Positions 6,953-41,931 of a stretch of 45,129 nucleotides of DNA are shown here, in pieces (position 1 is the first letter of the stretch; each line of letters starts with the position of its first letter). Source of the stretch: a bacterium (GTDB taxonomy: Bacteria; SZUA-182; DTGQ01); assembly GCA_040752695.1 (NCBI GenBank), contig JBFMGO010000037.1, positions 1 to 45,129 on the forward strand. The letters are read 5' to 3'. Made by a program: the position numbers and the translations under genes. The notes beneath the pieces were generated by a model. That model was not told the DNA's origin. It saw only the letters and a list, made by a program, of their open reading frames with translations, and did no database searches.

Positions 6953-8206
6953 GTGGATGCTTTGGAAAAGATAAGGAGTATATTACTAAGGAGTATATTA
7001 CTTATGATAAGAACATTCAACCTGTTAACCGTACCTATGAGAACTATGCTTATGAGAACCGCATTTTTGATTGCAGCCCTGATGGCAGTTCTGATGGCAG
7101 CCCTGACGATAGTTCCGGGTGCAGGGTTTGTGCAGGCAGAAGCACCGGGCGGATTTGTCCTCAGCAAAACAGAAAATCCCGCTTTTCATTCCAACGAACT
7201 TTTCCCTGCCTATGAAGACTATTACAGCCCTCGCGTCTGGAAATTGCGTGAGCAATATAACCTGGACAGGCTTATAGCCGAAGAGCCCGACGAATTCAGG
7301 CGTATTATGCTACTTCGCCACTGGGTTCATTCCAGCATGCCCATCGATGATTACGATTACACTCATACGCGAATGGATCCATTTGCCATTCTCGATGCGG
7401 CCAGGGCGGGCGGTAAATTCAACTGCGCGCAGTTCAGTGTTGTTCAGCATGCAGTGTTAAACAGCTTTGGTTATGTTGCTCGCTGCCTTGGTATCGGCCC
7501 GGGGAGGGGAGAAAAGGAGGATTTGGATGGGCATCATGCTGTTAATGAGGTGTGGGTAAATACCCTTAACAAGTGGGTACTTGTCGATGCCAAGTACGAT
7601 CTTCACTTTGAAAAACAGGGGATTCCCCTTTCAGCGCTTGAGATACGCGATGCGGTCTGGCAAGATGGTGCAAAAGATGTCACTCCCTGCTTCGGGCTTG
7701 ATCGAAAGCCTGTAGTTGCACAGATCAACGACCGTGATTGGGGTATCTGGGCAACGCCTGAAGTGTATCGCTGGTGTAGTTGGGAGACTTCTACCAATCG
7801 TTTTACTTCATTTCCGGCTGCTTTAAGTTCCACACTGATCATGTACGAGGATGACATATCCCAAAAGAATATCTGGTACCGGGACGGTCAGCCTCACTGG
7901 GCCTACGATACGCCGTATCTTATGAAAACAACACAGCGCGACTGGATCTACTGGACCCCTAACGTCATACTTTCTGCGGTAGTGATTCAGGATGGCCAGG
8001 TCCGTATTTCTCTGCTTTCTTTCACCCCGAACTTCAAGGCGTTTCAAATGAAAATCGCCGAAGGAGACTGGCAAAGCTGTAGCGATAGCCTGGATTTGCC
8101 CTTGCAAGGCCAGACTAACCGCTTTACCTTTCGCACGGTAAATCTGTTTGGCGTGACCGGCCCGGAGCATCGGGTAGAGGTTAATTGGCAGGAATCGGAG
8201 CTGTGA
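6953..8206 (+). CDS. Secreted transglutaminase-like (Cys-His-Asp) domain protein
   Basis: Catalytic triad motifs FNCAQFS, GHHAVNEVW and WVLVDA; hydrophobic N-terminal signal. The true start may be one of the downstream Met codons. Confidence 0.8.
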   Translation: MDALEKIRSILLRSILLMIRTFNLLTVPMRTMLMRTAFLIAALMAVLMAALTIVPGAGFVQAEAPGGFVLSKTENPAFHSNELFPAYEDYYSPRVWKLREQYNLDRLIAEEPDEFRRIMLLRHWVHSSMPIDDYDYTHTRMDPFAILDAARAGGKFNCAQFSVVQHAVLNSFGYVARCLGIGPGRGEKEDLDGHHAVNEVWVNTLNKWVLVDAKYDLHFEKQGIPLSALEIRDAVWQDGAKDVTPCFGLDRKPVVAQINDRDWGIWATPEVYRWCSWETSTNRFTSFPAALSSTLIMYEDDISQKNIWYRDGQPHWAYDTPYLMKTTQRDWIYWTPNVILSAVVIQDGQVRISLLSFTPNFKAFQMKIAEGDWQSCSDSLDLPLQGQTNRFTFRTVNLFGVTGPEHRVEVNWQESEL

Positions 8207-9521: not shown

Positions 9522-12500
9522 TCATTCTCCCACAGCCTCTTTTCTCAGTGCGAAGAGCTCTTTCAACTCGGCAGTCGAAAGTTCAGTAAGCCACCCCTCG
9601 CCGGTTCCGACCACACTCCGAGCGATATCCTTCTTGGACTCGATCATCTCGTCGATTTTTTCCTCCAGCGTTCCCACGCAGAGGAATTTATGAACCTGCA
9701 CGTTCTTGCTCTGACCAATACGAAAGGCCCGGTCAGTGGCCTGGTTCTCCACGGCCGGGTTCCACCAGCGGTCAAAGTGAAATACATGGTTGGCGCGGGT
9801 GAGGTTCAATCCTGTGCCGCCGGCCTTGAGCGAGAGGATGAAGATTGCCGGGCCGTCACCTTCGGCCTGGAACCGCTCCACCATGAGGTCTCTTTGTTTT
9901 TTGGTCACTGCGCCGTGCAAAAAGAGCACTTCCCTGCCGAAGGTTTCCTGCAGGTACCTCTTGAGGATCTGGCCCATCTCGGCAAATTGGGAAAATATCA
10001 GCGCCCGGTCACCTACATCGAGTATTTCCTCCATCATTTCGGCCAGGCGGGCCAGTTTACCCGACCGTCCCGGAATGGCCGAGTTATCGCCGAGAAACTG
10101 TGTCGGATGATTGCAGACCTGCTTGAGCTTCATCAGCGTGGACAGGACCAGGCCCTTGCGCGAGATACCCTCGGCTGATTCCAGTTCCTTTGCTGCATCT
10201 TCGGCCACGGCTGTGTAGAGCGATGCCTGCTCCCTGGTCAGGTTGCAGAAGACTTTCATTTCCATTTTTTCGGGCAGATCATCGATAATGGCCTTATCGG
10301 TCTTAAGCCGTCTCAGGATGAAAGGTCCGGTCAGGTGCCTCAGTTGCTCCATTGCCTCCGGATCGCGGTTGGCCTGGATGGGAATAAAAAAGGCTCTTTT
10401 GAACTCGGCTCTTTGGCCGAGGAAACCGGGATTTAAAAATTCCATGATGGACCACAGATCTCCTACGTTGTTCTCTACCGGTGTACCGGTGAGTGCCAGA
10501 CGATAGGGCAGGGCAGAGGATGCCTTGGACTGGTCTTTCTGCTTCCCCTTCTTTCGCCCCCGTTTTCCCTGCTTCTCCTCCTTCTCTTTTTGTTTTCCCT
10601 CGGCTGCCTGACCTTCTCTCTTTTCCCGACCGTCCTGACCGTCCTCCTGTCCGCCATGATCCCCCTGGCCGTCCTGACCCGCTTGATCTCCCAGGGAGAT
10701 TGCCCGTGCGGCCCTGGCCTGTTTGGTTTCAGGATTCTTGATATTTTGTGCCTCATCGAGGATTACTCCGGCCCAGGATACACTTTTCAGAAATTCGAAA
10801 TCCCGGTGCAAAAGGCTATAGCTCGAAATGACTATGGCCTGCTTTGCCGCTTCCCTCCTGAAGGCAGCACCCCTGGCCCTGGTCAGTCCATGGTGGACCA
10901 TAACCGGCAGGTCCGGCGTGAAGCGGCTGGCTTCCTTTTGCCAGTTGCCAACCACCGATGTAGGGCAGATCAAAAGCACTGGCCTGCGCTCGCCGTTCAA
11001 AAGCCAGTTGCGCTGGATGAGGGCCAGCGTCTGGATGGTTTTGCCCAGTCCCATATCATCGGCCAGACAAGCCCCAAGACCCCAGTGTTGCAGGAAATTC
11101 AGCCACGAATAACCCCGAACCTGATAGGGCCGTAAGGTTCCCTGAAAGCCTTCGGGCGAAGGCAATTCCTCCAGCCGGGAACGGTCTTCCAGTTGGGCCA
11201 GGAAGTCGGCTATCCAGCCGGTAGCAGTGACGCCCTCAAAAGCGATGCCGCCTTTTGGCTTTCCTGCTCCCAGGGCCATTTGGACAATTTCGTGGACCGT
11301 AGCCTCTTTTTCCGCTTTTTTCTTCCACAGATCGAGGGCAGCCTGGATCTCTTCGGCGCTCATCTGAACCCATTGTCCGCGCACCTTGACCAGCGGAGCT
11401 TTCAGTCTGGCCAGCGCCTGAAGCTCCTCAAAGGTGAGCCTTTGATCACCAAGTGCCACTTCCCAGTCAAACTGAACGATCCGCTCTAGCGATAGACCGC
11501 CGCTCGCCTGCATGGCCGGGCTCTTCACCTGAGCACGGGCAGTCAGCCGCAGTTTCGTCCCCTTGCCTGTCCACCAGGCAGGCAAAAGAACCCCAAAACC
11601 CGCCTGTTCCAGGGCCAGGGCCTTTTCGGTCAGAAATTCGTAGGCACCGGCAGCGTCAAGTTCATAGCCCCCGGGTGCGGATGCCTTGAGACTGTCCTCA
11701 ATAGCCGAAGAGAGTCCGGAAGCCTGCCCCAGTGACAGGAGCAGATATTCCCTGAAATTGAACCCTGCCTCATCGAGGACAGCATCTTTCAGGCGTCGCA
11801 GGTTTCTGGCCTTCCATACCTCCTGTGCAGGAATGAGCAGACTGGGGTCTTTGGCTGCCTGAAGCAGATAGCGCACATACCACCGGTCATTACCCTGCTG
11901 GACTGCGGACGGCGGGAGAATTTCATCTTCGATCTTGACAGCGACGGCTTCCGTGGCCGCCGCAGCCTCAAATTCGGCAGGGACAGCTTCCATGGCTCCC
12001 GCAGCTTCAGGCTCCTCGAGGCGGAAGCAGAGCCGGAAAGGAGCTGCCGCCAGGACAAAGATCTGGCGCTGCCATTCATCAATCTGGGCCGCCAACCGGG
12101 CCAGTTCCGCAGTTTCCCCCTCCATGATCCCCAAGGGAGAGCGCAGAGCGTGCAGCCACTGATCATGCATGCTGTCAAAGGCAAAAGCTTTCGCCTTCGA
12201 CTTCGCCCCTGGCTTTGGACCTGGCTTTGACTTTATGCCTCGCCCGGCTTGTTCACCTCCGTATTCACCCCAACCGGAAGACATACCGGAAGAAGACAGT
12301 ACCGAAAAGGGAAACCGCACCAGATAATCAAGAACCTGGCTGATGAATCCGGAGAGTACGGAAACTGCGGGGATTTCAGGGGGAGAGGAGACAGTGCACT
12401 CAGTCAGCGCCCGGCTCACGGCAGGCATTGCTTTGGCCATTCTGGTCAGCACTTCGTTCTCTGCCCCGCTCAGGACCGGCTTCCACAAGGCACGGTAGAC

Positions 12501-13187
12501 CCCGTCTTCTCTGGTCAGACCGGGCAGGAAATGCTGCCTGGCCACGAGTGCTCCGGCCATGCGCATGGCCGCTGTCCAGAAGGCCAGATCATGCCCGATG
12601 ATCACTCCCGGCGCCAGCGTCTGTTTGCCCGCGCAGGTGCAGAAAAGCTCAATTGCCTGACCGGTTGACATGCTGAGCACAGTAACCGGCCAGGGAGTCG
12701 GAACAGGAGGCATGGCTTTTTGGGCTGTGGTCCTGCCAGTTGATGCGGGCGGCTCGGCAATCAGTGCGCTGGAGGCTACCGGCTGATTGTCCACGGTGGG
12801 CAGCCAGGCAGTCATGGTCATGGCGCGCCCCATCACCGCACCGTGGGCATTTGCGCCGTGCTCCTTTGTTCCATGCCCCTTCGCACTACGCTCCTTCGCG
12901 CTGTGCACATTCACGCTATGCACATTCATGTCGTGCTCCTTCTGGCCGTACTCCCTGTTATCGTTCGGAGTAAAATGAATCCCTGCCTCCTGAAGTGCTT
13001 CCGACAGTTGCCCGGCTCCAGCATCAAAGGGATAAGGCAGGGCTAAGTTTTTAGCCGGCCTGCCGCGCCTCCGCTTGACTGGCTCAACCTGCTGCTGCGC
13101 AGGCACCTCACCCCAGAGCAGTATCCGGCTCTCAAGGACTGCGGTGTGTAAAATAATCATATTCTCTCCTATCCTCCATTCCTCCAT
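9522..13187 (-). CDS. SNF2-family ATP-dependent helicase (SSO1653/DUF3670 type)
   Basis: LADDMGLGKT, DEAQNIKN, LTGTPVEN, SLKAGGTGLNL, WNPAVENQATDRAFRIGQ. Start may be the second Met (13160). Confidence 0.95.
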   Translation of the reverse strand: MEEWRIGENMIILHTAVLESRILLWGEVPAQQQVEPVKRRRGRPAKNLALPYPFDAGAGQLSEALQEAGIHFTPNDNREYGQKEHDMNVHSVNVHSAKERSAKGHGTKEHGANAHGAVMGRAMTMTAWLPTVDNQPVASSALIAEPPASTGRTTAQKAMPPVPTPWPVTVLSMSTGQAIELFCTCAGKQTLAPGVIIGHDLAFWTAAMRMAGALVARQHFLPGLTREDGVYRALWKPVLSGAENEVLTRMAKAMPAVSRALTECTVSSPPEIPAVSVLSGFISQVLDYLVRFPFSVLSSSGMSSGWGEYGGEQAGRGIKSKPGPKPGAKSKAKAFAFDSMHDQWLHALRSPLGIMEGETAELARLAAQIDEWQRQIFVLAAAPFRLCFRLEEPEAAGAMEAVPAEFEAAAATEAVAVKIEDEILPPSAVQQGNDRWYVRYLLQAAKDPSLLIPAQEVWKARNLRRLKDAVLDEAGFNFREYLLLSLGQASGLSSAIEDSLKASAPGGYELDAAGAYEFLTEKALALEQAGFGVLLPAWWTGKGTKLRLTARAQVKSPAMQASGGLSLERIVQFDWEVALGDQRLTFEELQALARLKAPLVKVRGQWVQMSAEEIQAALDLWKKKAEKEATVHEIVQMALGAGKPKGGIAFEGVTATGWIADFLAQLEDRSRLEELPSPEGFQGTLRPYQVRGYSWLNFLQHWGLGACLADDMGLGKTIQTLALIQRNWLLNGERRPVLLICPTSVVGNWQKEASRFTPDLPVMVHHGLTRARGAAFRREAAKQAIVISSYSLLHRDFEFLKSVSWAGVILDEAQNIKNPETKQARAARAISLGDQAGQDGQGDHGGQEDGQDGREKREGQAAEGKQKEKEEKQGKRGRKKGKQKDQSKASSALPYRLALTGTPVENNVGDLWSIMEFLNPGFLGQRAEFKRAFFIPIQANRDPEAMEQLRHLTGPFILRRLKTDKAIIDDLPEKMEMKVFCNLTREQASLYTAVAEDAAKELESAEGISRKGLVLSTLMKLKQVCNHPTQFLGDNSAIPGRSGKLARLAEMMEEILDVGDRALIFSQFAEMGQILKRYLQETFGREVLFLHGAVTKKQRDLMVERFQAEGDGPAIFILSLKAGGTGLNLTRANHVFHFDRWWNPAVENQATDRAFRIGQSKNVQVHKFLCVGTLEEKIDEMIESKKDIARSVVGTGEGWLTELSTAELKELFALRKEAVGE

Positions 13188-13422
13188 GGCTAATATTCTA
13201 CCGTACAGCCCATTCTATGCTTTCTTAATATTTTTTTCAAGGGGTTATCCTATCCCTTCGAGAAGGGGGGAAAAGGGAAGTATTAGGGCAGACTATCTCT
13301 GCCGACGGGATCTTAGGGCAGGTCGCAAAGCACACCGGCCAGGAAATGCCCGGCCAGTCATGGAATTGAGAGTGTTTCTCGAAAATCCCCCTCACCCCTT
13401 TACACAAGGGGGAATAAAACTA

Positions 13423-14772
13423 CGCTCATGTCTAGATACCGTGAGGAGCCAATAGAGTTTGGAGTAATGAATAGAGGACATCGGAGACTCGTCGTTTCAT
13501 GTTGTGGAAGAATTCAAAGGAACTGACATACAAGTACAGGTACATCTTTCTGACTCCTCGGTATGTTCGGAGCCACTGGCGCAGGAGTGACCAGATTGCT
13601 TCCATAGTGTTTTCATGTACTTCGTTGATTCCGTCGCCATCATCATCTCTGGCATATTCCCCTTGGCTATGGCAAACAGTCTTGTGCTTAATACCTTTCT
13701 CTTCGAGCCCATTGTACCCTCCTCAATCATCTGTGTTCAGGGTAGAGCCGGGTTCCACATGTTTTTCTATCACTTCATGGCAGCTCTCCTTAGTTGCATT
13801 GGGGCAGACCTCCAAGCGGATTTCCCCACTGTCTCGCTCCACCACCCCAATCACAGGGGGCTTATCAGTTTCCGCTGTGCCTCGTCCACGCTTTTTGAGT
13901 CCTCTTTTGCGGGGATTACGATCTTTTTGTTTGATTCCCTTAGCACCGCAGATGATATATACTTCATCCGATTCGCTTATCCCTGAAAGCTTCTCTCCAG
14001 GACGATTGATCCATAACTCATCCTGCAAGAGCCGGTGCATTCTCTCTGCTGTATGGCGATTGACATCAAGTTCTTGGGCTACTGCCAAAGCACTCTTGCC
14101 CTGTCGGAACAAATCCAAAGCTACAAGCCAATGGGAGAGAGGAAGGCGAGTACCCTCAAATATCGTCTCTGACAAATCAGTCCACCAGTGCTTACATTCG
14201 CGGCAACGATACTGTTTTGTTTTTTTATCATGCCGATTGGCCCCGTCTACAGCCACCCCAATAGGGATACCATTGCCTTCAGTATGCATACTGCGCTTGG
14301 TACCACTCTTGCTGCGATCAGTTGGGTTATGCCCTGTTGCTTCACCACCCAAGGGAGCTTTGGTCATGGTGCCATCTATGGTTTGCCACTCCCAGTCCAA
14401 GCCTTTGACTTGGTCGTACTCTATCAGCCCTGCTTCCCACATCTTTTGGAATACTCCAGCCTTCTCCCACTCCTTGAATCGATCGTGGACAGTGCTGGGT
14501 GCCCCAAGACAGCGAGGCAATGCTTTCCATTGACATCCAGTACGAAGGAGGTAAAATATAGCTGTCATTGCGTGACGATCATCCATCCGAGGTCGTCCTG
14601 CCTTCTTCTTGGGCTTTGGTGGAGGAAACAAGGATTCCATCCTCTCCCACAAAATATCGGGGAGTTGATACTCGGAGGATATGCAAGTGTTCTCCATCTT
14701 TATCACTTCCTTTATATTTCATTGAGTTATCCTCTATTGTATCATACTTCCTGTTATTTTTCGGATAGCCTC
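13423..14772 (-). mobile_element. Composite degenerate IS: IS5-family 5' part fused to IS1595-family 3' part
   Basis: IS5-type end GAGGCTATCCGAAAA (minus strand from 14772) followed by TAA; at the other side cgctcatg at 13423 resembles an IS1595 (ISH4-like) end. Confidence 0.75.
13432..14706 (-). pseudogene. Chimeric IS5/IS1595 transposase pseudogene with in-frame TGA at 13723-13725
   Basis: N-terminus LPDILWERMESLFP...LRTGCQWKALP...IDGTM...GTKRS...GANRHD is IS5-like; it switches to YRCRECKHWW...ESDEVY...LNTDD* and continues in the same frame GGYNGL...HSQGEYARDDDGDGINEVHENTMEAIWSLLRQWLRTYRGV to a stop at 13432 (IS1595-like). Confidence 0.85.
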
Positions 14773-14990: not shown

Positions 14991-15198
14991 AAGACCGATT
15001 GCAGGAATACCTGCTCGGTCCCGGCTTGGCCACTGAGGTATCTTCCCACGATACCGGCTGCACCTATTAACGCCACCTATTAACGCCACATGTTAACACC
15101 ACCTGTACTCAACTCACCTGTCCGGCTCATCTTCTGGATACATTTTTCCAGTTCTGGATACATTTTTCCAGCTCGTCATTACTTTTCTCCCTGAGGCA

Positions 15199-15214
15199 TG
15201 GTATCAATATTGCT
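15199..15214 (+). promoter_or_regulatory. sigma-54 promoter upstream of the GGLY-repeat genes
   Basis: tGGtatcaatattGCt: GG-N10-GC with TTGC at -12; about 570 bp before the start codon at 15788. Confidence 0.55.
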
Positions 15215-15787
15215 GGTCTTTTAAGAAGGCAGAATTGATGGGCATTCCCGAAGAATGTCGATGGCGCCGTTCATTTCTTTTCAAGTGCCCTGTTAAAAAT
15301 ATGGTGGCAGGCCCATAAAAAGCCGTCCCTATATTCTGCTTTTACCTTGTTGCAGGGGGGTGTGGGTTAGAACCCCATACCGAAGAGTCACTATGAAGTC
15401 TATCCGTAAAGCAGGTACCGGAGACCGGAGCGTTTCCGGCCTTTTCAGGTCAGGTAATTCCGGGTAGATGCGGACCAGGGTCTTCGCTTTGCGGAGATAA
15501 TGAAGGGAGGTGCATAGGTCCCGGTGTAACGGGATGAATGGTTTGGTTGCTTGATCTCATAAGCAACGCGATTTTTTAACTATTACTGAGCAGAAAGTGT
15601 TTAAACCATGGTTCTCCAGAGTAATAATTGCATTAACCTCCATTAGCTCCTTTATCGAGAGGGAATATACAGCCCTTGTGCTAAAGGGAATATACTTCCC
15701 TTTTTCTAAATGGGAGGCAGGGGGATTTTCAATTTGCTTAATGGAATGTGATGTCTGGAGAATCAGTATGAAGAGGCTAGGAGAGCG

Positions 15788-16645
15788 ATGAAAAAGAGTA
15801 TTACGAAGTTCCCTTTTCGGTTTTTCGTTATTTCTTCCCTGTTGTTGTTCACATTCACTTATATTTTGCCTCAAAGATCTGCAAATGCCTATTATGGCTA
15901 TGGTTACGGCAGCAGCCTGTATAGTGGCGGGCTCTATGGCAGCAGCTTGTATGGCGGTGGCTTATATGGCAGCAGCCTGTATGGCGGGCTCTATGGCGGT
16001 CTGTACGGTGGTGGCTTATATGGCAGCAGCCTGTATAGCGGGCTCTATGGCGGTCTGTACGGCAGCAGCCTGTATGGCGGGCTCTATGGCGGTCTGTACG
16101 GTGGTGGCTTATATGGCAGCAGCCTGTATAGCGGGCTCTATGGCGGTCTGTACGGCGGCAGCCTGTATGGAGGGCTCTATGGCGGCCTGTATGGCGGTGG
16201 CTTATATGGCAGCAGCCTCTACGGCGGTTTGTATGGCAGCAGCCTGTATGGTAGCGGGCTCTATGGCCTGGGCAGCGGTTTAAGGTATGGTCTTGCTGAG
16301 CAGGCAGGAACGTGGGAAGGACTTTGGTATTCTACGCTCGCCAGTGGACCCATAACTTTAAATATTATCCAGGATCCAGTATTAACGAGTACTATTACCG
16401 GATATGTCCAACTCATTGGTAATACCATACTGCCAGTCTTGTTGGATGTTACCGGAACGACATTGAATAATCAGGTATATCTGAACGGGTCATACGCAGG
16501 GTCCGGCGGTGCAGTTATCCTTGATATTGTTGCCACGCTTATTTCTCCCACTGAAATGCAAGGTAATTATACTCTGGGTAAGAGCGGTGCCACGGTACTT
16601 GAAACAGGGACTTTTACGGCAACCCTGACGACACCAATAATCTAA
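15788..16645 (+). CDS. Secreted Gly/Tyr/Leu-rich (GGLY/GSSLY repeat) protein with C-terminal beta domain, paralog 1
   Basis: AGGAG RBS, signal peptide ...QRSANA|YY, ~130 aa of [14 protein letters not shown] repeats, then [17 protein letters not shown] and a ~120-aa beta-rich domain. Confidence 0.88.
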
Positions 16646-16730
16646 CCTGATGCCTTTTCAGCCAAGGTGAGGTTTAATTTACTTTTAACTGACTTTTAAC
16701 AGACTCTCGATAGGGTTCGGGATTGGTACG

Positions 16731-17636
16731 GTGATGAAAATGCGATTTAATGGTTCTTCTTCTCAAGCTCGGTTTTTAATTGTTGCTTCCCTGTTCTTAT
16801 GCGTCCTGGCCGCGACTCTTCCTCTGAAAAATGCTCTCGCTTACTATGGTGGTTATGGTATAGGCAGTATCTCAGGCAGTGGATCCTCTCTTGGCAGCGT
16901 CAATTACAATGGCGGCTTGTATGGCAGCAGTCTATACGGCGGCTTGTATGGCAGCCTGTATGGCGGCCTGTACGGCGGCGGACTCTACGGCAGCCTGTAC
17001 GGCGGTGGCTTGTATGGCAGCAGCCTGTACGGCGGTTTGTATGGCGGTTTGTATGGCAGCAGTCTATACGGCGGACTCTACGGCGGTTTGTATAGCGGTT
17101 TGTATGGCAGCAGTCTCTACGGCGGACTCTACGGCGGACTCTACGGCGGACTATACGGCGGTCTGTATGGTGGCGGCTTATATGGCAGCAGCCTGTATGG
17201 CGGCCTGTATGGCGGGCTCTATGGCGGCCTGTATGGCGGTTTGAGCAGCTTAAGATACGGCCTGGCCGAGCAGTTCGGGACCTGGGCAGGTACCTGGTAC
17301 AACGTTTCCACCAAGGGAGCCGTAGTCGTTGCCAATGGACCGATAACGATAAACCTTGTCCAGGACCCCGTATTACCGTCAAATGTCAGCGGGTATGTTC
17401 AGGTAGTCGGCCATCCTATCCTCCCGTCAATAGTTGATGTTACCGGCCAGATACTCAACAGTCAGATAATTCTTTCCGGAACCGGTGTCAGTGCCAGTGG
17501 TAAGAGCATTGTGCTCGATGTGGCCTGCACCCTGACTACAGCCACTGAAATGTTCGGTGATTTTACCATGATTCAAAGTTCAACCATCGTTTCAACCGGA
17601 ACCTTCACGGCGACATTGGCGCCGGTGGTTATTTAA
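16731..17636 (+). CDS. Secreted Gly/Tyr/Leu-rich (GGLY/GSSLY repeat) protein with C-terminal beta domain, paralog 2
   Basis: Signal peptide ...LKNALA|YY, same repeat chemistry, [18 protein letters not shown]-terminal domain aligns with paralog 1 (GPIT.N..QDPVL, GYVQ..G..ILP...[17 protein letters not shown]). Confidence 0.88.
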   Translation: MMKMRFNGSSSQARFLIVASLFLCVLAATLPLKNALAYYGGYGIGSISGSGSSLGSVNYNGGLYGSSLYGGLYGSLYGGLYGGGLYGSLYGGGLYGSSLYGGLYGGLYGSSLYGGLYGGLYSGLYGSSLYGGLYGGLYGGLYGGLYGGGLYGSSLYGGLYGGLYGGLYGGLSSLRYGLAEQFGTWAGTWYNVSTKGAVVVANGPITINLVQDPVLPSNVSGYVQVVGHPILPSIVDVTGQILNSQIILSGTGVSASGKSIVLDVACTLTTATEMFGDFTMIQSSTIVSTGTFTATLAPVVI

Positions 17637-17655
17637 CTTAATCTCTCTCTTTAAC

Positions 17656-17696
17656 ATTGTCCATTCCCCTCATGCTCTCTGAGGGGAATGGACAAT
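17656..17696. terminator. Strong hairpin, likely bidirectional terminator
   Basis: attgtccattcccctca / tgaggggaatggacaat perfect 17-bp stem between convergent genes. Confidence 0.75.
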
Positions 17697-17808: not shown

Positions 17809-18534
17809 CTAGAGGCCAGCAGGTTTCTTGCCTTTTCTCCACCATTTTTCCCATTGTACCGGATCCTCACCGAAATTCTTCCCGGTTATTTTCTTCAGTG
17901 CCTTGGCTGCGTTCTCCCTCACATCTTCCGATTCTTCATCCCTCAGTGCTGCGATCAGGGGTTCTACTGCCCGGAAATCCCTGATCTTCCCCAGTGCATC
18001 GGCAGCTTCTTCCCTCACCTCGCGGTTTTCATCCTTCAGCGCAGCAATCAACTGAACCACGGCACCAGGGTTCCTTATCTTCCCCAGTGCTTCGGCTGCA
18101 TTTTCCCGCACGTCATGGTCCTCATCCTCAAGGGCCAGGATCAGAGACTCCGTAGCCAGGTCAGACTGAATCTTGCCCAATGCTTCGGCCGCATTTTCCC
18201 TCACCCTTGGGCTTTCATCCTTCAGTGCTGTAATCAGAGGTTCCACTGCCCTGTCATCGTTCAGTTTGCCCAGTGCCTCGCATGCATCCTCCCGTACTTC
18301 AGGGTCCTGGTCGCTGAGATCGGCGATGAGGGACTCCAATGCATGCGGCTCTTCTGTTTTTTTCCCTGCCAGTTCCGTTTGTTTTTCAGGGGAAGATTTC
18401 TTCCAGAGTAAAGGGATCTTTTGCAGTAACCCCGCTTCGGCCTGTCCCTCATGAGAGCCCTCTGGTCCCGCAGTAATGCCTGCCACAGCGAAGGCTACGA
18501 TCAATAACATTAAAACTCTCCTCAGCCTTTTCAT
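17809..18534 (-). CDS. Secreted PBS-lyase-type HEAT-repeat protein
   Basis: Five LI.AL.DE...VRE.AA.ALGKI repeats, C-terminal ITGKNFGED..QWEKWW; AAGGAG RBS before MKRLRRVL at 18534; N-terminal hydrophobic segment. Confidence 0.88.
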   Translation of the reverse strand: MKRLRRVLMLLIVAFAVAGITAGPEGSHEGQAEAGLLQKIPLLWKKSSPEKQTELAGKKTEEPHALESLIADLSDQDPEVREDACEALGKLNDDRAVEPLITALKDESPRVRENAAEALGKIQSDLATESLILALEDEDHDVRENAAEALGKIRNPGAVVQLIAALKDENREVREEAADALGKIRDFRAVEPLIAALRDEESEDVRENAAKALKKITGKNFGEDPVQWEKWWRKGKKPAGL

Positions 18535-18810
18535 ATTCTGTTTCTCCTTATCCTCATTTTTCTCCAACACAACAGCACAAAGAAGCGGCTTTCTCCAACA
18601 ACGCAAAGAAGTAGCTTTCTCCAACAGCACAAAGAAGCAGCGGATAGCCGGAAAGCTCACTGATTTTACTGGCTGCTGGTCGTTTATCGGTGTGTATGTG
18701 TTCTCTTTTTCGGAAAAAAAAGGGTAAAAACGCCATGCCAAAAGGACAATATGCCGGGGAACATTGCGGGGAAAGACAGGCAGGGAGGATTATCGCATCC
18801 TGGTTCTTGG

Positions 18811-31532: not shown

Positions 31533-32165
31533 ATGAGAAAAAGAAGGGAAAGAGCAGGTATTATCTTGATGGGGGCCGCCTTATGTATCGCGTTGCTGTT
31601 CTCAATTGCAGAGGCAGCCATGAGGCCGGTTTCAGTCAAAGTGACAGTAAACGGGAAATTGCAGTTGATTCCCCTTCAAGGGAATGAGGCGGTTTATGAA
31701 AACGGGGAGACGGAGATTCTGCTTGCTCCTCAGACAATTCTGAAATCTTTGACTGGAACAAGCTCCGTTAAGATTGGGATTGTTCAACTTCTTCTCGATA
31801 AGGATGACAGCATGGCCCTGGTCTATGGGTCTGGAGATGAACCTGCATTCAAGTGCATAGGCGGATCGATCGAGGCAATCTGCGGTGACACGAACCGCAA
31901 GTTTGTAGAGGGTGATGTTGTGGCCTTAAATTCCCTGTCCGGGGGAGGCGAAGCTCAAAAGGTGGCAAATAGCAGGGCAAGGGTTGCAGAAAGAGTAAAA
32001 GGTCTTGACCTGTATTATGGGCCGGTCCAGATCGGCCAGACAGGGAATGCTCCTGGTAACATTCTGCCGTATCAGGGAGGGCCGTATAATCCAAGATTGC
32101 CGTGGCTGACAGGATATGGGGAACAGAATACCTGGACATGGACAAGTGCAAGCCCTTACTGGTGA
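31533..32165 (+). CDS. Secreted hypothetical protein (beta-rich, possibly FecR-like)
   Basis: AAGGAGAGGG RBS, signal peptide ...IAEA|A, beta-strand pattern, Gly/Pro/aromatic tail ending ASPYW. The FecR resemblance is weak. Confidence 0.75.
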   Translation: MRKRRERAGIILMGAALCIALLFSIAEAAMRPVSVKVTVNGKLQLIPLQGNEAVYENGETEILLAPQTILKSLTGTSSVKIGIVQLLLDKDDSMALVYGSGDEPAFKCIGGSIEAICGDTNRKFVEGDVVALNSLSGGGEAQKVANSRARVAERVKGLDLYYGPVQIGQTGNAPGNILPYQGGPYNPRLPWLTGYGEQNTWTWTSASPYW

Positions 32166-32191
32166 TCCTTGCCGGTGAGGAAGAAGAAGCC

Positions 32192-32341
32192 GTGTATTTA
32201 CACACCCTGAAGCTTTTATTATTATCCATTCTTGTTTTTTCCCTCTTTGTTTCAGCTTCTCATGAAAAGAGTGGCGGAAATCTTTTCAACCGCGAGGTTA
32301 AATTTACCACAAGGCCAGTCGAAAAATCGAGTGAGGCGTAA
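32192..32341 (+). CDS. Possible 49-aa exported peptide
   Basis: GTG after gaggaagaagaag; YLHTLKLLLLSILVFSLFVSA|SHEK... is signal-peptide-like. Confidence 0.3.
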   Translation: MYLHTLKLLLLSILVFSLFVSASHEKSGGNLFNREVKFTTRPVEKSSEA

Positions 32342-32668
32342 CTGTGAAACCCATACTTTTGGGTTGACGTGAAGAAAAATCGTTTACTCACTATTCATTC
32401 CTGGAAGGTAACGTGGCTTCACGACGTTTGCTTTTAAAAGATCTGAACTTCAATTAAGCTTCTTGGTAAGGAACGATCGAGTCAGAAATTTCCTTCGAGC
32501 ACATTTCGGGTAGCATGTGGAGTCAAGCTAAAATATCCAGGATTGACTTTTATAATGAGCATCAGTTTTAAATGAGCATCGGATGTCAATGGTATTTATT
32601 GTTATCACTGTCATCTATGACTGCTATCTATAAACACAAAATGTAAATTGCGAGAGGAGGAAGAATAA

Positions 32669-34234
32669 GTGGAAAGTAGATGGCTTAGAGCATTTTTATT
32701 GCTGGTTGCTATTCCTGTTCTTTTAGGAATCACACCGAAATCCTCGTCTGCCGTTGAGCCGGATACTATTGCCGATGTAGCAGCACATAATGGCGGCAAA
32801 GGTGCATCTTTGATTGCCACGCAGAGTATAGGCAATAACGGTACAGGCATCAGCCGGGCGAAAATACTGTACAGTATCGACATCACAAAGGGCACAAAGA
32901 ACAATACCGCGGGGGATATAGCCACGATAGTAAACACCGTAGCCGGCAGAATGGCGGAAATCCAGAGAGCCGACGATGACGGATGGACAAGGGACCTTGA
33001 CGGAAGTGGCGGGCTTTTACCGAACACCTATGGCCTTGTCGGCATGGGGCTTCTCATGGCTCACAAGATGAATGTCAAACTCGTGGGATCAACGATACAG
33101 CCAGCATCGGTGGTTCAGGACGAGTTCCTCGGTGCTGCCCTGAAAGCAGGGGATGCGCTGATTGAGAAAGCTCAGACGGATCCTAATACCCTGGTATCAA
33201 CTGACGTTACTTTCCTGTACGGACTGTCCCGTGTGTATGGGGGAAGCAATTATATGGAAACCTGCTACCATAGTGCTGGTTATGTTGGTCTCCATGCGTT
33301 TGTTGAGCACCATGACCCGAATGATGTCTGTAAAATTTACGATACTGTTCCTGCCGATGCCAGTACAGAACTCAAGCAGCTTAAACTCTGGCAAATGGCC
33401 AGTTGGGTGGAAGCCGCTAAACTGTATGCCGGCAGTGGCGTTGATGTCGATACCACGCTGAGTACATGGGCCGATTCGTTGATGGCGAAAATTTGTAATT
33501 TCCAGGACAGCGCCGGCGGGTTTTACTATGCGCAGTCCAGTGGAAAGAACCTCGTGCGAACCGCTGGACAGGCCAAGGTCGTAGAGGTGCTTAAGCGATT
33601 CTATGCTCAAAACAATACCTATAAGAGCAAGCTTAAGAATGGATTGGCTTATTTAAAGGGCCTGCAATATGGGGGGACAGACAGCACGAGAAGAGGCTCA
33701 TTCTATTGGGGTGGTGAGACTGTAGGTACAAATCTGGTCACCTGGAACAAGGTTGCTCTGGAGGATCAGTGTTACGCAGTCCAGGCCATGGCTCATAACT
33801 TTCAGACCAGATGGAATAAGCTCGATAATTACAAAGGTACCCACTGGGGCGCCAACTACCTGATCAAGTCAATGATGTATGGCCCTCAAGGAGGCTACGA
33901 GTTCTTCGTGGATCATAAGGATTTCGATCCTGCCAGCACCGATGTTTATGTACCACGAGTTGACCGCAACAGCGAGGCGATCCAGGCTCTGTATTATAGC
34001 TGCAAGCAGGGTAACATAACCAGATCCGGGAATAACACGGCTCATAATGCCCTGCAGGTTGTCAATGCCATCATCGGCCGCAGAAAACCACTGGGCACTC
34101 AGCAGATGAACGGCCCTGAGATCGTTGCAGCAGACCGCAACAATGATGGAAAAATCAATGATGCCGATGTATCGATCCTGATAAAGGATTCTATTGGCGA
34201 TCACGAGCCGATTCGCAGCTTTTTGGGCTTATAG
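32669..34234 (+). CDS. Secreted alpha/alpha-toroid protein with C-terminal dockerin domain
   Basis: GAGGAGG RBS, signal peptide; Q..(D)GG(W/F)-like repeats (IQRADDDGW, FQDSAGGF, LQYGG...GSF); C-terminus GNITRSGNNTAHNAL...IIG...AADRNNDGKINDADVSILIK matches the duplicated dockerin pattern. Confidence 0.8.
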   Translation: MESRWLRAFLLLVAIPVLLGITPKSSSAVEPDTIADVAAHNGGKGASLIATQSIGNNGTGISRAKILYSIDITKGTKNNTAGDIATIVNTVAGRMAEIQRADDDGWTRDLDGSGGLLPNTYGLVGMGLLMAHKMNVKLVGSTIQPASVVQDEFLGAALKAGDALIEKAQTDPNTLVSTDVTFLYGLSRVYGGSNYMETCYHSAGYVGLHAFVEHHDPNDVCKIYDTVPADASTELKQLKLWQMASWVEAAKLYAGSGVDVDTTLSTWADSLMAKICNFQDSAGGFYYAQSSGKNLVRTAGQAKVVEVLKRFYAQNNTYKSKLKNGLAYLKGLQYGGTDSTRRGSFYWGGETVGTNLVTWNKVALEDQCYAVQAMAHNFQTRWNKLDNYKGTHWGANYLIKSMMYGPQGGYEFFVDHKDFDPASTDVYVPRVDRNSEAIQALYYSCKQGNITRSGNNTAHNALQVVNAIIGRRKPLGTQQMNGPEIVAADRNNDGKINDADVSILIKDSIGDHEPIRSFLGL

Positions 34235-34328
34235 TTCAAGCATTGTGCAAGGCAGTTTAAGGACCTGATCTTTGTAACAGTAGATACCTATGAATATTAT
34301 CGTGAAATTGAGAGAGGAGGATTTAGCC

Positions 34329-36413
34329 TTGGCTAAATTAAGATTTTGGTTGATACCAGCCATTATTTTAGGTTTCGTATTATGCTTGGGTTACAGCCCC
34401 GGACGGGCAGCGACAACCTATGGTCTGCTCACCGAACAAAATATTTCCGCAACACCGGACGCCACAAAAGTACAGGTTCCCCTGATGCTTTTTCCTACTA
34501 CCGGGTTGCAGCATTTTACCTTAAGGGCGGTCTATGACCCGAATATATTGACATTGCCCACAGATCCAAATGCGCTGAAGCAGAGCATCGACGGTCTCGC
34601 TTCGTTGGAGAAGGACTTGTTTATCAAGGCATATCAGCCGAATGAGCGGATCGATGGAGGGCAGACTAACGAAGTTATGATCAGCGGCTGTATCAGAAGT
34701 AATACCCTTGGCAACGCTCTGAGGGCATGGCCTGTACAAGACAGAGCCAAATTTCTAGTTCTTAATTTTGGCCTTACTGATAATGTGGCTGCTGGTAGCA
34801 GTACCAATGTAAAAATTTCAGGATTTGCCGGTAGAGACGATGTCCAGGAATTGATCCCTGCTGAAGCCAAAGCGACTATATCCTTTCAGGAGGACCTGTG
34901 TCCAGTACCGGTTACTGTTATAGGTATTCCAACAGGTACTTCTTATAGCGTCAGACTTTGGGGATCTGGCGTGGAATACAAGAAAGACTCGACAGAGCTT
35001 CCACTCCCGGCGGTGAAATCGAATGCCAGCTATTGGGTGGCGGCTGAGAGTCTCGGCTACAAAGGAGCTATCAAGAAGATACGCATAGGTGCGGACGAGA
35101 AGATTTATGTCGATACGAACACAGTACCCTCTGATTCGGTAGCCCTGACCCTGGAAATGATTAAAGGGCGAATTGCCTTCGTACGGAAAATCGATCTGAG
35201 CAATAAGATGCTGCAACTTAATTTTGCATATAAAAATTATTTGGGTGTAATACACGACTGGCCCGAAAATGTCGATTTGAAACTGGAATTCACCAAACAG
35301 GGTGGCAGTTCCACCATCATCACTGTTGATCCCAATAACCCTGGTGCTACTGCCGGTGATTTTGCAGTACTCCCGAGACTGGAGGAATCCGGGTCCATAT
35401 TTACCGCTAAATATATCTCGATGACGATCGATCCCAGCAAGTATTGCTTATCGAGTGAGGAGAAGGAAGGTAATATGAAAAGGTACAGCCTTTCCATGAA
35501 AATCTCCTCAACAAGTTCCAGCATCGATGCATCACCGAGTAACACGATCGAAGTAGATATCCCTGAAACCATTGTCAAGACGAAGATGAGCATAGCCCAG
35601 GCTGCTACTACCTTTACGGGAGTAACGGAAATTAAATCAGTCGGCGAAATGATCATTAAGGCGAATTTCTATCTCGAGGAAAATGAAGCCGCGAAGGAAA
35701 TTGAAACCACTTTCTCGGCAGCGGAAATGAACGTTGCTTATCTAACGTCGGACGATACGGCGGAAGATATCGATCCGGTCCAAATGGACCAGAAAAAGTT
35801 CAACCTGGTAGTCGAGATCAAACCCTGCGAGGATACTCCCGAGATTGAGGAAGCTTCCGACATCACCATAGTCAGTATCAACTTTACCGATGAGCAGGGG
35901 AACGTCTTTGAATACGATCCCCCTGAAAATGTAAGGGATTCGGTTGGTCCACTGGTAATCGATATACCTTTGCACAAAGCCCTCCAAAGGGCCTATGGAA
36001 GCGGGATTACGTCGGCGTCCGATCCCAATACCATCCATGCCCTTTGTCAGGAAATTCAGGATTACCGGCTGATAACTCAAAGCTCCCAGGATAGTAAATC
36101 GCCTGACTACGAAGAGCCCGATCCCAATGCTCCTTCCCGCTATGGGATTTATTTCCAGCGCAAGGGAAAGAACCCGAAGATATTTATTCCCAATAAGACC
36201 GAATATGGTGAAGATATAAGCGTTTTTTACCGTAACGGACTATTCTTTGCCAAAGTCACAACCAAGCATTCATGTCTGTATTATGCAGCGACCCCGGAAG
36301 AGGCGGCAAGCATGGCTGTGGAAACACCGCCTGCTCCTTCTTCCGATAAAGAGGGTGACCATTGGTACGAGTGCTTCATCGAGTCTCTTCGTCCGAGGTT
36401 TCTGTTTAAATAG
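34329..36413 (+). CDS. Secreted multidomain protein with N-terminal cohesin-like domain and C-terminal CFI motif
   Basis: GAGGAGG RBS before TTG 34329; signal peptide; ISATP....VQVPL...F.L...YDPNIL...FLVLNF.L..NVAAGSST.VKIS cohesin pattern; Pro/Ser linker then ECFIESL at the C-terminus. Confidence 0.75.
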   Translation: MAKLRFWLIPAIILGFVLCLGYSPGRAATTYGLLTEQNISATPDATKVQVPLMLFPTTGLQHFTLRAVYDPNILTLPTDPNALKQSIDGLASLEKDLFIKAYQPNERIDGGQTNEVMISGCIRSNTLGNALRAWPVQDRAKFLVLNFGLTDNVAAGSSTNVKISGFAGRDDVQELIPAEAKATISFQEDLCPVPVTVIGIPTGTSYSVRLWGSGVEYKKDSTELPLPAVKSNASYWVAAESLGYKGAIKKIRIGADEKIYVDTNTVPSDSVALTLEMIKGRIAFVRKIDLSNKMLQLNFAYKNYLGVIHDWPENVDLKLEFTKQGGSSTIITVDPNNPGATAGDFAVLPRLEESGSIFTAKYISMTIDPSKYCLSSEEKEGNMKRYSLSMKISSTSSSIDASPSNTIEVDIPETIVKTKMSIAQAATTFTGVTEIKSVGEMIIKANFYLEENEAAKEIETTFSAAEMNVAYLTSDDTAEDIDPVQMDQKKFNLVVEIKPCEDTPEIEEASDITIVSINFTDEQGNVFEYDPPENVRDSVGPLVIDIPLHKALQRAYGSGITSASDPNTIHALCQEIQDYRLITQSSQDSKSPDYEEPDPNAPSRYGIYFQRKGKNPKIFIPNKTEYGEDISVFYRNGLFFAKVTTKHSCLYYAATPEEAASMAVETPPAPSSDKEGDHWYECFIESLRPRFLFK

Positions 36414-40899: not shown

Positions 40900-41931
40900 T
40901 CAATCCAGTTTTGTCGTTCCGAAAAGGGAAGTCAACATGGCTTTTCCGATGACATTCATGAGAATACCGAACAGGGCCAGCCCCATGATCATGGTTATGG
41001 CAGCCAGGAGTTTTCCGATGATAGTGGAAGGATACATATCTCCATACCCGACGGTGGTGATGGTTACCACGCACCACCACATAGCTGCCGGGATGCTGGT
41101 AAAGGGGGTGTTGGCAGTATTTCGTTCCGCATAATAGATCAGGGTGCTGCAAATGATAATTACGCTGAAAAGGGCGGTGATGTAAATCTGGAGATCTATT
41201 TTCAGGGTGTGGACGCGTTGCCTGGCACTGTGATGATACTGGTCAGTGGCGTTCTTAGCCAATTTTAAAACCCGCATCATCCTGATTGTACGCAGGAATC
41301 GAACAATGCGCAAGGTTCTGGCCAGTTTTACGTCACGAAGATCCATCATATGAAAGTAGGAAGGCAGGATCGCCAAAAGGTCGATCAATCCCCAGAGGCT
41401 GAAGATATAGCCGAGCTTACTTTCGGCCACATAGATATTGATTATGTATTCGATGGTGAAAAGTCCCACCACGATCAGCTCGGACCAGGAGAAGAAAGCC
41501 CCCCAACGCTCCATGAGCGAGGGAACGGATTCCAGGGTAACGCCGAGGACGGAAAAGAGGATCAGAATAACTAAAAAGTCATTAACCCAGGCATAATATC
41601 TGGAGTTTTTATTCAGGAAGGCATCTGCTAAAACCTGGTGCACTCTGCTGGTCTTTTTCTTTGATGGATCCTCTTCCATCGATTCAAGAAGCGGCAGCAA
41701 TGCCCCTTCTTCCTGAAGAGTATCCTCAGTCTGAACGGTCTCCCGTTTTTCCAGATCCAGGATACGGCCAGTCAATTTTTGGATTTCTTCTCTTTGGTAC
41801 TCGATGACCCCTCTTTGCCGTTCGTTTTCCAGAGAGAGGCGCTTGATGGTCTGGATCAGCGCCTGGGCGTCCTTTGGCTGGAAACGATCATCGATACATT
41901 CAGAAACGGGAGTATTTCCCTTGGATGACAT
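40900..41931 (-). CDS. Voltage-gated potassium channel (6TM), paralog 1
   Basis: Selectivity filter TTVGYGD, S4 basic repeat, N-terminal coiled-coil-like extension. Confidence 0.92.
   Translation of the reverse strand: MSSKGNTPVSECIDDRFQPKDAQALIQTIKRLSLENERQRGVIEYQREEIQKLTGRILDLEKRETVQTEDTLQEEGALLPLLESMEEDPSKKKTSRVHQVLADAFLNKNSRYYAWVNDFLVILILFSVLGVTLESVPSLMERWGAFFSWSELIVVGLFTIEYIINIYVAESKLGYIFSLWGLIDLLAILPSYFHMMDLRDVKLARTLRIVRFLRTIRMMRVLKLAKNATDQYHHSARQRVHTLKIDLQIYITALFSVIIICSTLIYYAERNTANTPFTSIPAAMWWCVVTITTVGYGDMYPSTIIGKLLAAITMIMGLALFGILMNVIGKAMLTSLFGTTKLD

Follow-up and report, generated by a model that had tools for sequence, protein, structure and literature searches.

The window analysed here is a 45,129-nucleotide (nt) stretch of bacterial DNA (positions 1 to 45,129 of the forward strand of contig JBFMGO010000037.1, assembly GCA_040752695.1; GTDB lineage Bacteria; SZUA-182; DTGQ01), and this report concerns a tandem pair of genes within it, their promoter region and the family of paralogues to which they belong. 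Each gene encodes a protein whose N-terminal segment is basic, then hydrophobic, and ends in AxA; it is followed by a low-complexity arm built of GGLY / GSSLY motifs, a conserved junction with an AEQ motif, and a C-terminal domain predicted to form an eight-stranded beta-barrel. The features of the locus are the following (aa, amino acids).

15061-15104 and 15132-15171, + strand: direct repeats 5' of the promoter, 13 nt x3.4 and 20 nt x2 respectively (Tandem Repeats Finder)
15199-15214, + strand: sigma-54-type -24/-12 element TGGTATCAATATTGCT, with GG at 15200-15201 and GC at 15212-15213
15215-15787, + strand: leader of gene 1, 573 nt
15788-16645, + strand: gene 1, open reading frame (ORF) of 285 aa, its ATG preceded by the Shine-Dalgarno sequence AGGAGA
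15788-15889, + strand: putative signal peptide of protein 1 (aa 1-34), with probable cleavage between SANA and YY
15890-16294, + strand: Gly/Tyr/Leu/Ser region of protein 1 (aa 35-169), predicted disordered
15968-16218, + strand: 93-bp (31-aa) higher-order repeat in gene 1, 2.7 copies with 96% matches (Tandem Repeats Finder)
16295-16642, + strand: barrel of protein 1 (aa 170-285) with an AEQ-GTWxGxW start, as modelled by AlphaFold2
16646-16730, + strand: intergenic spacer of 85 nt, without significant structure (z -0.05)
16731-17636, + strand: gene 2, ORF of 301 aa counted from the GTG at 16731
Start of gene 2 to aa 37, + strand: putative signal peptide of protein 2, ending in an NALA pattern before YY
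16842-17264, + strand: Gly/Tyr/Leu/Ser region of protein 2 (aa 38-178), delimited by sequence composition
17028-17137, + strand: 51-bp repeat unit in gene 2, 2.2 copies, 96% (Tandem Repeats Finder)
17265-17633, + strand: barrel of protein 2 (aa 179-301), whose first hairpin bears a 7-residue insertion
17656-17696, + strand: hairpin 3' of gene 2, with a perfect 17-bp stem and a 7-nt loop

A sequence-only reading of this DNA had proposed that the two proteins share a signal peptide, repeats, a junction and a C-terminal domain, and that the first contains a 31-aa unit repeated about three times; both proposals agree with the layout given above. The repeat regions are similar in length and composition (135 aa with G 38%, Y 22%, L 21% and S 16% in protein 1; 141 aa with G 39%, Y 21%, L 20% and S 14% in protein 2), and each contains a single charged residue. 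The C-terminal domains, of 116 aa in protein 1 and 123 aa in protein 2, are 52% identical to each other, and the domain carries very few charges (7 acidic, 1 basic). The pair consists of genuine genes rather than chance ORFs, since orthologues in the same tandem arrangement are found in two genomes of the same genus: the barrel of the gene-1 orthologue is 80-81% identical there, and the gene-2 orthologue follows it, so that the tandem pair is syntenic. The ATG at 16734 is a more likely start for gene 2 than the GTG at 16731, because the database relative P0016 begins with MKMRF. The repeats also give rise to spurious ORFs that overlap the pair in other frames (15885-16283, 16879-17244 and others). 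Genes 1 and 2 are probably co-transcribed as one sigma-54-dependent transcription unit.

The structure of the barrel was modelled with AlphaFold2 from residues 165-285 of protein 1 and an alignment of 39 sequences (mean predicted local distance difference test score, pLDDT, 90.3; predicted template modelling score, pTM, 0.81). The model consists of eight consecutive strands in an up-and-down arrangement, connected by loops of 2-9 residues at both ends. In the model of the full-length protein, a helix at residues 10-26 corresponds to the signal peptide, residues 30-169 have a pLDDT below 50, and the barrel extends from residue 174 to residue 281, with a one-turn helix before it at the AEQ motif. 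Given this low pLDDT, the repeats are predicted to be disordered. No sequence search gave the domain a name. Neither protein matches any family of Pfam or NCBIfam at E ≤ 1, a profile of 15 barrel sequences retrieved no PDB sequence at E ≤ 10, and the nearest clusters of the ESM Atlas are unnamed (0.90-0.91), the named leads scoring 0.84 or less. The sequence-only reading had recognised no described bacterial family with this architecture, and these searches bear it out. That reading had regarded a match of the C-terminal domain to a characterised family of unrelated function as damaging to its proposal; the searches gave no match to any characterised family.

Foldseek searches against the PDB retrieved agroavidin, rhizavidin, streptavidin and shwanavidin (E 2e-4 to 2e-3, template modelling scores of 0.5-0.68, 12-17% identity). 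An independent fold search placed designed eight-stranded barrels at the top (Z 14.1, with a root-mean-square deviation, rmsd, of 2.4 over 109 residues, and Z 13.4), followed by a domain of quinohemoprotein amine dehydrogenase (Z 12.9), Cap15 (12.3) and zebavidin (12.1). Further down are shwanavidin (11.4), the membrane proteins OmpA and OprF (both 11.4), PagL (10.9) and NspA (10.3), as well as fHbp (10.3), NHBA (10.2) and the Gid4-type barrels of Gid4/Gid10 (8.6-10.6). Since designed barrels are the best structural matches, the predicted fold is a generic eight-stranded meander barrel. The GTWxG motif had been taken as a sign of an avidin/lipocalin-like barrel; this stands at the level of the fold (pLDDT 90.3, avidins at Foldseek E of about 2e-4 and VIA Z of 11-12) and fails at the level of sequence. 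As regards the avidins, the model has their eight-stranded antiparallel up-and-down barrel and the sequences have no PF01382 match (Pfam, E ≤ 1). As regards the lipocalins, the barrel and the GTW motif are present, no helix follows strand 8 in the model, and there is no Pfam lipocalin match. The strands alternate hydrophobic residues with T/N/S/Q, a pattern that alone would leave a membrane-embedded barrel possible. We nonetheless read the modelled barrel as soluble, because its loops are short at both ends, because the C-termini are TPII, VVI or PVI and not an aromatic beta-signal, and because relatives hold 2-5 barrels per chain.

The pair belongs to a large family. In its own genome (G000; 6.05 Mb, 239 contigs, 96.6% complete), a hidden Markov model (HMM) of the core domain detected 25 family ORFs (E 1.4e-49 to 1.8e-5), while tblastn gave 22 matches and phmmer on ORFs 18; clusters include five genes on C94, three on C111 and a pair on C33. 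The sequence-only reading had suggested a two-subunit system. This idea is not favoured because most paralogues are unpaired: the pair represents two of the 25, and most of the others are single or lie in larger clusters. All 13 genomes of the order contain matches to the profile (2-37 each), and the 12 genomes other than G000, which are distributed in three families (5/5, 6/6 and 1/1), all matched in a single-protein search as well. By contrast with these, none of the seven remaining genomes of the phylum (same class, 85-97% complete) matched the profile, and a single-protein search found no relative in 28 genomes outside the order (the 7 of the same class and 21 of other phyla). A word-indexed search of 5.77 billion proteins recovered 8 relatives among 348 candidates, and an exhaustive search of 1.84 billion representatives recovered 45 at E ≤ 1e-3, of which 22 reached E ≤ 1e-10 and 4 reached E ≤ 1e-30. 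One of these 45, P0050, was rejected as a member, as the HMM detects no barrel in it and the match is a repeat artefact. A scan of species-representative genomes yielded 25 loci, one of them labelled Pseudomonadota. Judging from its signal peptides, the family appears to be exported; it is nearly charge-free, modular, strongly expanded, restricted to the order and at least partly regulated by sigma-54.

Every full-length homologue follows the same order of signal peptide, low-complexity arm and barrel, and the composition of the arm varies. Among 49 database proteins with the barrel, 16 have G/Y-rich arms, 15 have Pro-rich arms, 12 are short or fragments and 6 are of other types. The sequence-only reading had considered that homologues mostly lacking repeats would speak against it. 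Low-complexity arms as such are not mostly missing, although the Gly/Tyr type is found in only about a third of the homologues. In the window's own genome the arms are rich in G/Y/L with S or M, or in Pro/Phe/Ala, and in one case (C7_79405) they consist of about 13 YPQYQT repeats. This divergent member (G000:C7:79405-80637, L049) has a Tyr/Thr/Pro/Gln-rich arm that resembles a prion-like domain, and it adjoins a gene for a DnaJ-trypsin-PDZ fusion. By a regular-expression count, the residues after the predicted AxA are YY in 20 of the 25 own-genome paralogues and Q plus an aromatic residue in another 4, a pattern that inspection of the sequences also brings out. In the database record P0001, the N-terminal 110 residues read as an out-of-frame translation of the GGLY repeat (ACMAAACT...), which suggests a frameshift or an assembly error in the repeat of that record.

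Some homologues hold 2-5 barrels per chain, with P/T/V/A linkers between them. One such case is a run of nine consecutive genes with 1-5 barrels each in the third family of the order (G007:C12:71690-89308; L050, L051), seven of which start with a conserved region of about 200 aa, QNWVELPPYN or QNWI. In this array, one gene reaches 5 barrels and a stop interrupts one gene fragment. The constancy of the signal peptide and arm, together with the multi-barrel chains, fits a modular structural protein. Two C94 paralogues and several database proteins additionally carry a tail after the barrel, made up of PTVVAP-like repeats and a short hydrophobic end of the SGLYFLLF type. In the two paralogues (G000:C94:8647-9948 and 12191-13606, L039) the tails are about 130-140 aa long and end in ...AVISGLYFLLF; the ends SGLWWLF and SGLFWNYF are found in database relatives. 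This tail end may represent a so far undescribed motif for sorting or anchoring at the C-terminus.

The regulation of the family points to sigma-54. The element TGGTATCAATATTGCT fits TGGYAY-N5-TTGCW at 11/11 specified positions, and it sits 573 nt 5' of the ATG of gene 1, which is unusually far. The same 16-mer lies at -229 and -224 of the gene-1 orthologues in the two same-genus genomes and also 5' of the paralogue C77. No sigma-54 motif was found upstream of gene 2 in strict or relaxed scans. The strict motif has 136 matches genome-wide on both strands, so that chance would place about 0.25 in the 25 x 900 nt that precede the family genes; five of the 25 have it within 900 nt (C37 at -589, C77 at -428, C3 at -286, C171 at -200 and C113 at -237). 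Allowing one mismatch within 700 nt, the motif precedes 7/25 family genes against 0.78 expected, and it also lies 89 nt 5' of the gene for the S8 subtilase at the head of the same-strand five-gene cluster of C94. In related genomes, similar motifs are found 5' of other paralogues, and the flanks around them do not align, which argues for selection on the promoter itself. In another family of the order, three genomes (L025, L026, L028) have strict motifs both 5' of an S8 gene and 5' of the leading gene of a pair of family members, and three strict motifs precede genes in the G007 array. The genome encodes rpoN at G000:C26, where PF04552 matches with a score above its cut-off (E 1.5e-60). No Sigma54_activat domain was found in the 28 ORFs of the window that were scanned, and sigma-54 activator genes adjoin other family loci, namely C94 (with an HDOD gene), L025, L026 and L028; a BLAST relative of the C94 activator lies upstream of the C74 family gene. 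The sigma-54 link proposed by the sequence-only reading is thus supported by the enrichment of upstream motifs and by comparisons between genomes.

Some features of the window copy are particular to it. The sigma-54 element is preceded, at a distance of 30-140 nt, by the direct repeats of 15061-15171, and the two 20-nt units at 15132-15171 each hold a palindromic CTGGA..TCCAG; these repeats could be an activator-binding site, and they are absent from the upstream sequence of the orthologues. Compared with those of the two same-genus orthologues, the gene-1 leader is longer by about 360 nt, owing to two insertions. The leaders of all three genomes share a conserved 20-nt box, ATAATGAAGGGAGGTGCATA (15497-15516). 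The extra leader sequence of the window contains a 25-nt tandem repeat (15660-15715) and, between promoter and gene 1, a terminator-like hairpin with T6 (15546-15575; folding free energy, dG, -11.6; z -2.8). The leader is unique in the genome and was rejected as a mobile repeat. An Rfam scan of the whole window found no family and a tRNA scan found no gene; the long leader therefore matches no described RNA. Downstream of the pair, the hairpin at 17656-17696 (dG -29.6 kcal/mol, z -8.6; 0/200 shuffles fold as well) sits between gene 2 and a convergent gene for a HEAT-repeat protein. The absence of a U tract marks it as a strong hairpin rather than a canonical intrinsic terminator. Of the frame that the sequence-only reading had drawn around the pair, the GG-N10-GC promoter is therefore in place at its distance of 573 nt, whereas the "strong terminator" is retained as a hairpin only.

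To survey the neighbourhoods of the family, the 163 non-family ORFs that flank the 25 genes were compared with one another by all-versus-all BLAST, and 33 of these ORFs were scanned against Pfam. The recurring groups are small and correspond to ABC transporter parts, M4-like peptidases, TPR proteins and activators. An S8 subtilase gene lies directly 5' of family genes at C94, at L022 in the same genus, and at L025, L026 and L028. An M4-like protein of 974 aa is encoded 3' of the C94 cluster and has a 62% identical copy in L022, and an M4-like paralogue with an fn3 domain is found near C12_29620. In a maximum-likelihood tree of 38 barrels, C94_13741 is grouped with the first, and C94_12191/C94_8647 with the second, of the two genes found after the S8 gene in the other family of the order; this second grouping has support of 97/89. 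By this orthology, the locus made up of the S8 gene and a pair is old within the order, and the comparison shows that the family is ancestrally linked to a secreted protease. The window pair is found in a different grade, with C3, C43, C171, C27 and C77; with the exception of C43, this grade corresponds to the genes that have a TGGTATCAATATTGC-type promoter.

Several other candidate partners were tried and rejected. C77 lies just 5' of genes for the E and F proteins of a type II secretion system (T2SS), and this adjacency is not conserved where it was examined: none of 30 related loci (L009-L038) contains a match at E ≤ 1e-8 to the T2SS E/F proteins of C77, not even L020, which is likely to be the C77 orthologue from the similarity of its N-terminal part. 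A Slam or type XI secretion (T11SS) route was rejected as well, the best PF04575 match reaching 17.5 bits with a cut-off of 22 bits and the cleavage site having no cysteine. The transglutaminase-like gene at 6953-8206 was set aside as a possible cross-linker, since a helicase gene and an insertion-sequence (IS) fragment intervene.

Other genes of the window were also described. The convergent gene 3' of the pair (17809-18741, - strand) encodes a HEAT/PBS-lyase-repeat protein with an N-terminal hydrophobic segment, and the same gene also follows the pair in one same-genus genome (L010). On the other side, the ORF at 13723-14706 (- strand) has a DUF4096 (IS4/IS5-type) N-terminus joined to the first half of an IS1595-type DDE domain. 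It is probably what remains of a truncated or chimeric insertion sequence, close to the 5' side of the locus. Further away are three consecutive ORFs of 210, 521 and 707 aa without a Pfam match (31533-36413, + strand) and two adjacent paralogues encoding voltage-gated-type ion channels with Ion_trans and Ion_trans_2 (40900-41931 and 42065-43105, - strand).

Several scenarios may explain these observations. The one that we prefer, at somewhat less than an even chance, is that the family supplies the material of an inducible extracytoplasmic matrix or coat, held together by cohesion between the arms, with the barrels serving as folded anchors or junctions. Disordered chains that are rich in aromatic residues and spaced by glycines are known to be cohesive. 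In the arm of the family proteins, tyrosines and leucines would act as stickers and glycines as spacers, so that the uncharged Gly/Tyr/Leu/Ser region would supply cohesive, elastic and reversible contacts, while the barrel would provide a folded node for anchoring or joining the chains. Enhancer-binding proteins would turn on the expression of these building blocks, which could make up a surface coat, a matrix or a periplasmic gel, and at the ancestral locus the co-regulated secreted S8 subtilase, together with the M4-like peptidase in this genus, would probably process or remodel the material. Export beyond Sec, the final location, self-association, the material function and proteolytic processing are what we infer in this scenario. 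The fibre or sheath, the nucleating role of the barrel and the dityrosine cross-links mentioned in the sequence-only reading stay hypothetical, and no oxidase domain was detected in the 33 neighbouring ORFs scanned. A more specific version, for which we see only a slim chance, takes the Gid4/Gid10 barrels as its analogy: the barrel might capture the aromatic N-terminus (YY or Q-aromatic) of another chain and thereby build a self-assembling elastomer. If this were true, head-to-tail links and tyrosine cohesion would produce a gel or sheath that is inducible and remodelled by proteases, the prokaryotic equivalent of squid ring teeth but cross-linked through folded nodes.

Four observations weigh against a matrix or coat material. 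The genome encodes an Omp85 fusion and PagL, which makes the organism a diderm, and in such a cell a Sec signal alone would deliver the proteins no further than the periplasm. The neighbour survey described above found no conserved secretion, chaperone-usher, sortase-like or oxidase gene next to the family; what recurs among the 33 ORFs scanned is limited to proteases, regulators and unrelated genes. Pro-rich arms take the place of Gly/Tyr in about half of the full-length homologues, so that a squid-like chemistry is not the common denominator of the family. Lastly, the expression of the window copy itself may be attenuated, because of its 360-nt longer leader with a terminator-like hairpin.

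Alternatively, the barrel could be a tethered binder of a ligand, either avidin- or lipocalin-like (for a vitamin, lipid, siderophore or glycan) or a lectin anchored to polysaccharides, with the arm as a mere spacer. We consider this unlikely, though it deserves to be kept in mind. The avidin matches (Foldseek E 2e-4 to 2e-3; zebavidin and shwanavidin in the fold search), the calycin-like GxW at the first strand with a short N-terminal helix, and weak leads of the ESM Atlas to an avidin-containing cluster (0.81) and to an OAA lectin cluster (0.84) are in its favor, and the loops at one end of the barrel vary among paralogues, as diversified binding sites would. Yet there is no Pfam Avidin or Lipocalin match at E ≤ 1, the identity to avidins is 12-17%, and the better scores of the designed barrels suggest that the resemblance is one of generic geometry. 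Moreover, 20-37 copies per genome and arrays of up to five barrels would be unusual for a scavenger, and the conserved AEQ, DP, NNQ and SPTxM motifs seem to be located at the end where the termini meet, not at the variable end. The recurrent proteases call for another interpretation, that the family proteins are substrates, pro-forms or barrel-type inhibitors (staphostatin- or aprin-like) of the S8 and M4 enzymes, for example as a reservoir of Gly/Tyr peptides. The S8 genes directly 5' of family genes at the five loci listed above, the strict sigma-54 motifs before both the S8 gene and the first family gene at three of them, the M4-like gene 3' of the C94 cluster with its paralogue near C12_29620, and an ESM Atlas lead to Staphostatin A (0.77) are all congruent with it. 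Nevertheless, a protease neighbour is found at a minority of loci, the window pair not being among them, the Staphostatin A score is under the level that the tool calls meaningful, and no PDB inhibitor is found in the top 50 structural matches; we therefore hold this interpretation to be improbable.

A location in the outer membrane is, in our view, slightly more doubtful still. The barrel would then be an OmpA/OmpX-like eight-stranded transmembrane anchor with the arm extending into the periplasm or to the surface, and it is true that OmpA, OprF, PagL and NspA score close to the avidins and that the alternation of hydrophobic and T/N/S/Q residues, with few charges (7 acidic, 1 basic), would suit a membrane barrel. 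The loops of 2-9 residues are short at both ends, however, the C-terminus (TPII, VVI or PVI, mostly with proline) lacks the aromatic beta-signal, and neither the 2-5 tandem barrels nor the long post-barrel tails would be expected of such an anchor; in addition, no Pfam family of outer-membrane proteins matches, and soluble barrels are the best structural matches. The last scenario, which we regard as very improbable, treats the C-terminal barrel as a domain for secretion or sorting, like the C-terminal domain of type IX secretion (T9SS CTD) or the cargo of Slam/T11SS, and the arm as the cargo. The combination of a conserved C-terminal domain with variable N-terminal parts in many paralogues of one lineage recalls such tags, and the barrels of NHBA (Z 10.2) and fHbp (Z 10.3) also follow long disordered N-terminal regions. 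But the supposed cargo is always of low complexity and never an enzyme or adhesin domain, the barrels are also internal and arrayed, the best PF04575 match stays under its cut-off, and there is no lipobox cysteine.

An unannotated barrel domain and its new modular architecture have expanded to 20-37 copies in the larger genomes of an order that belongs to an uncultured and sparsely sampled phylum, and the family probably represents an envelope or matrix trait that is peculiar to this lineage and controlled by sigma-54. Some 25 "hypothetical proteins" per genome can now be annotated as a single family, whose regulon, made up of the activator, the S8 protease and the family genes, is open to testing. 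If the matrix or coat reading is true, the family would be a genetically simple bacterial analogue of the Gly/Tyr structural polymers of animals. For protein materials, it offers small expressible parts, a disorder-prone GGLY arm and a barrel of 115 residues predicted with high confidence.

The comparison with known systems starts with the suckerins of squid, an analogy that the sequence-only reading had drawn from the GGLY motif and that holds at the level of the motif. In PMC6393770, the Gly/Tyr segment of the squid ring-teeth proteins is described as their disordered, network-forming part, and the Gly/Tyr/Leu motif of these segments is the same as the GGLYGGLYG repeats found here (PMC6393770). 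In both cases the repeats are tandemly expanded. The suckerins nevertheless alternate these segments with Ala/Thr/His-rich beta-sheet blocks bounded by proline, whereas the bacterial arms have no such blocks (A ~0%) and are joined to a folded barrel instead. Since the organisms and the origins of the genes are unrelated, this likeness is a convergence and not a homology. A literature search on GGLY-type motifs returned squid ring-teeth or unrelated work and no such bacterial protein among the matches listed, a whole-word search for the motif gave only work on glycerol and gastrin among the matches listed, and a search on glycine-tyrosine low-complexity secreted bacterial beta-barrel proteins showed no similar protein among its listed matches.

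The avidins share with the family an eight-stranded barrel of about 115 residues and a GxW-type first strand; they differ in having no long low-complexity arm, in not being multicopy and in the lack of a sequence-level match, and they are not known to be regulated by sigma-54. NHBA and fHbp are alike in that a long disordered N-terminal region precedes a C-terminal eight-stranded barrel, but they are lipoproteins, while the proteins described here have an AxA site of the signal peptidase I type, no lipobox and no sequence similarity to them. Sigma-54 regulons serve surface and matrix structures such as flagella, pili, exopolysaccharide and the development of Myxococcus, in which the M4 protease FibA is associated with the matrix. 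The family resembles these regulons in its enhancer-binding proteins, its -24/-12 promoter and the secreted proteases near putative genes for surface material, and it differs from them in that its structural genes fall outside every described family. What is new is the domain family itself, with its expansion and its fusion to suckerin-like or Pro-rich arms, whereas the fold and the regulatory logic are of known kinds.

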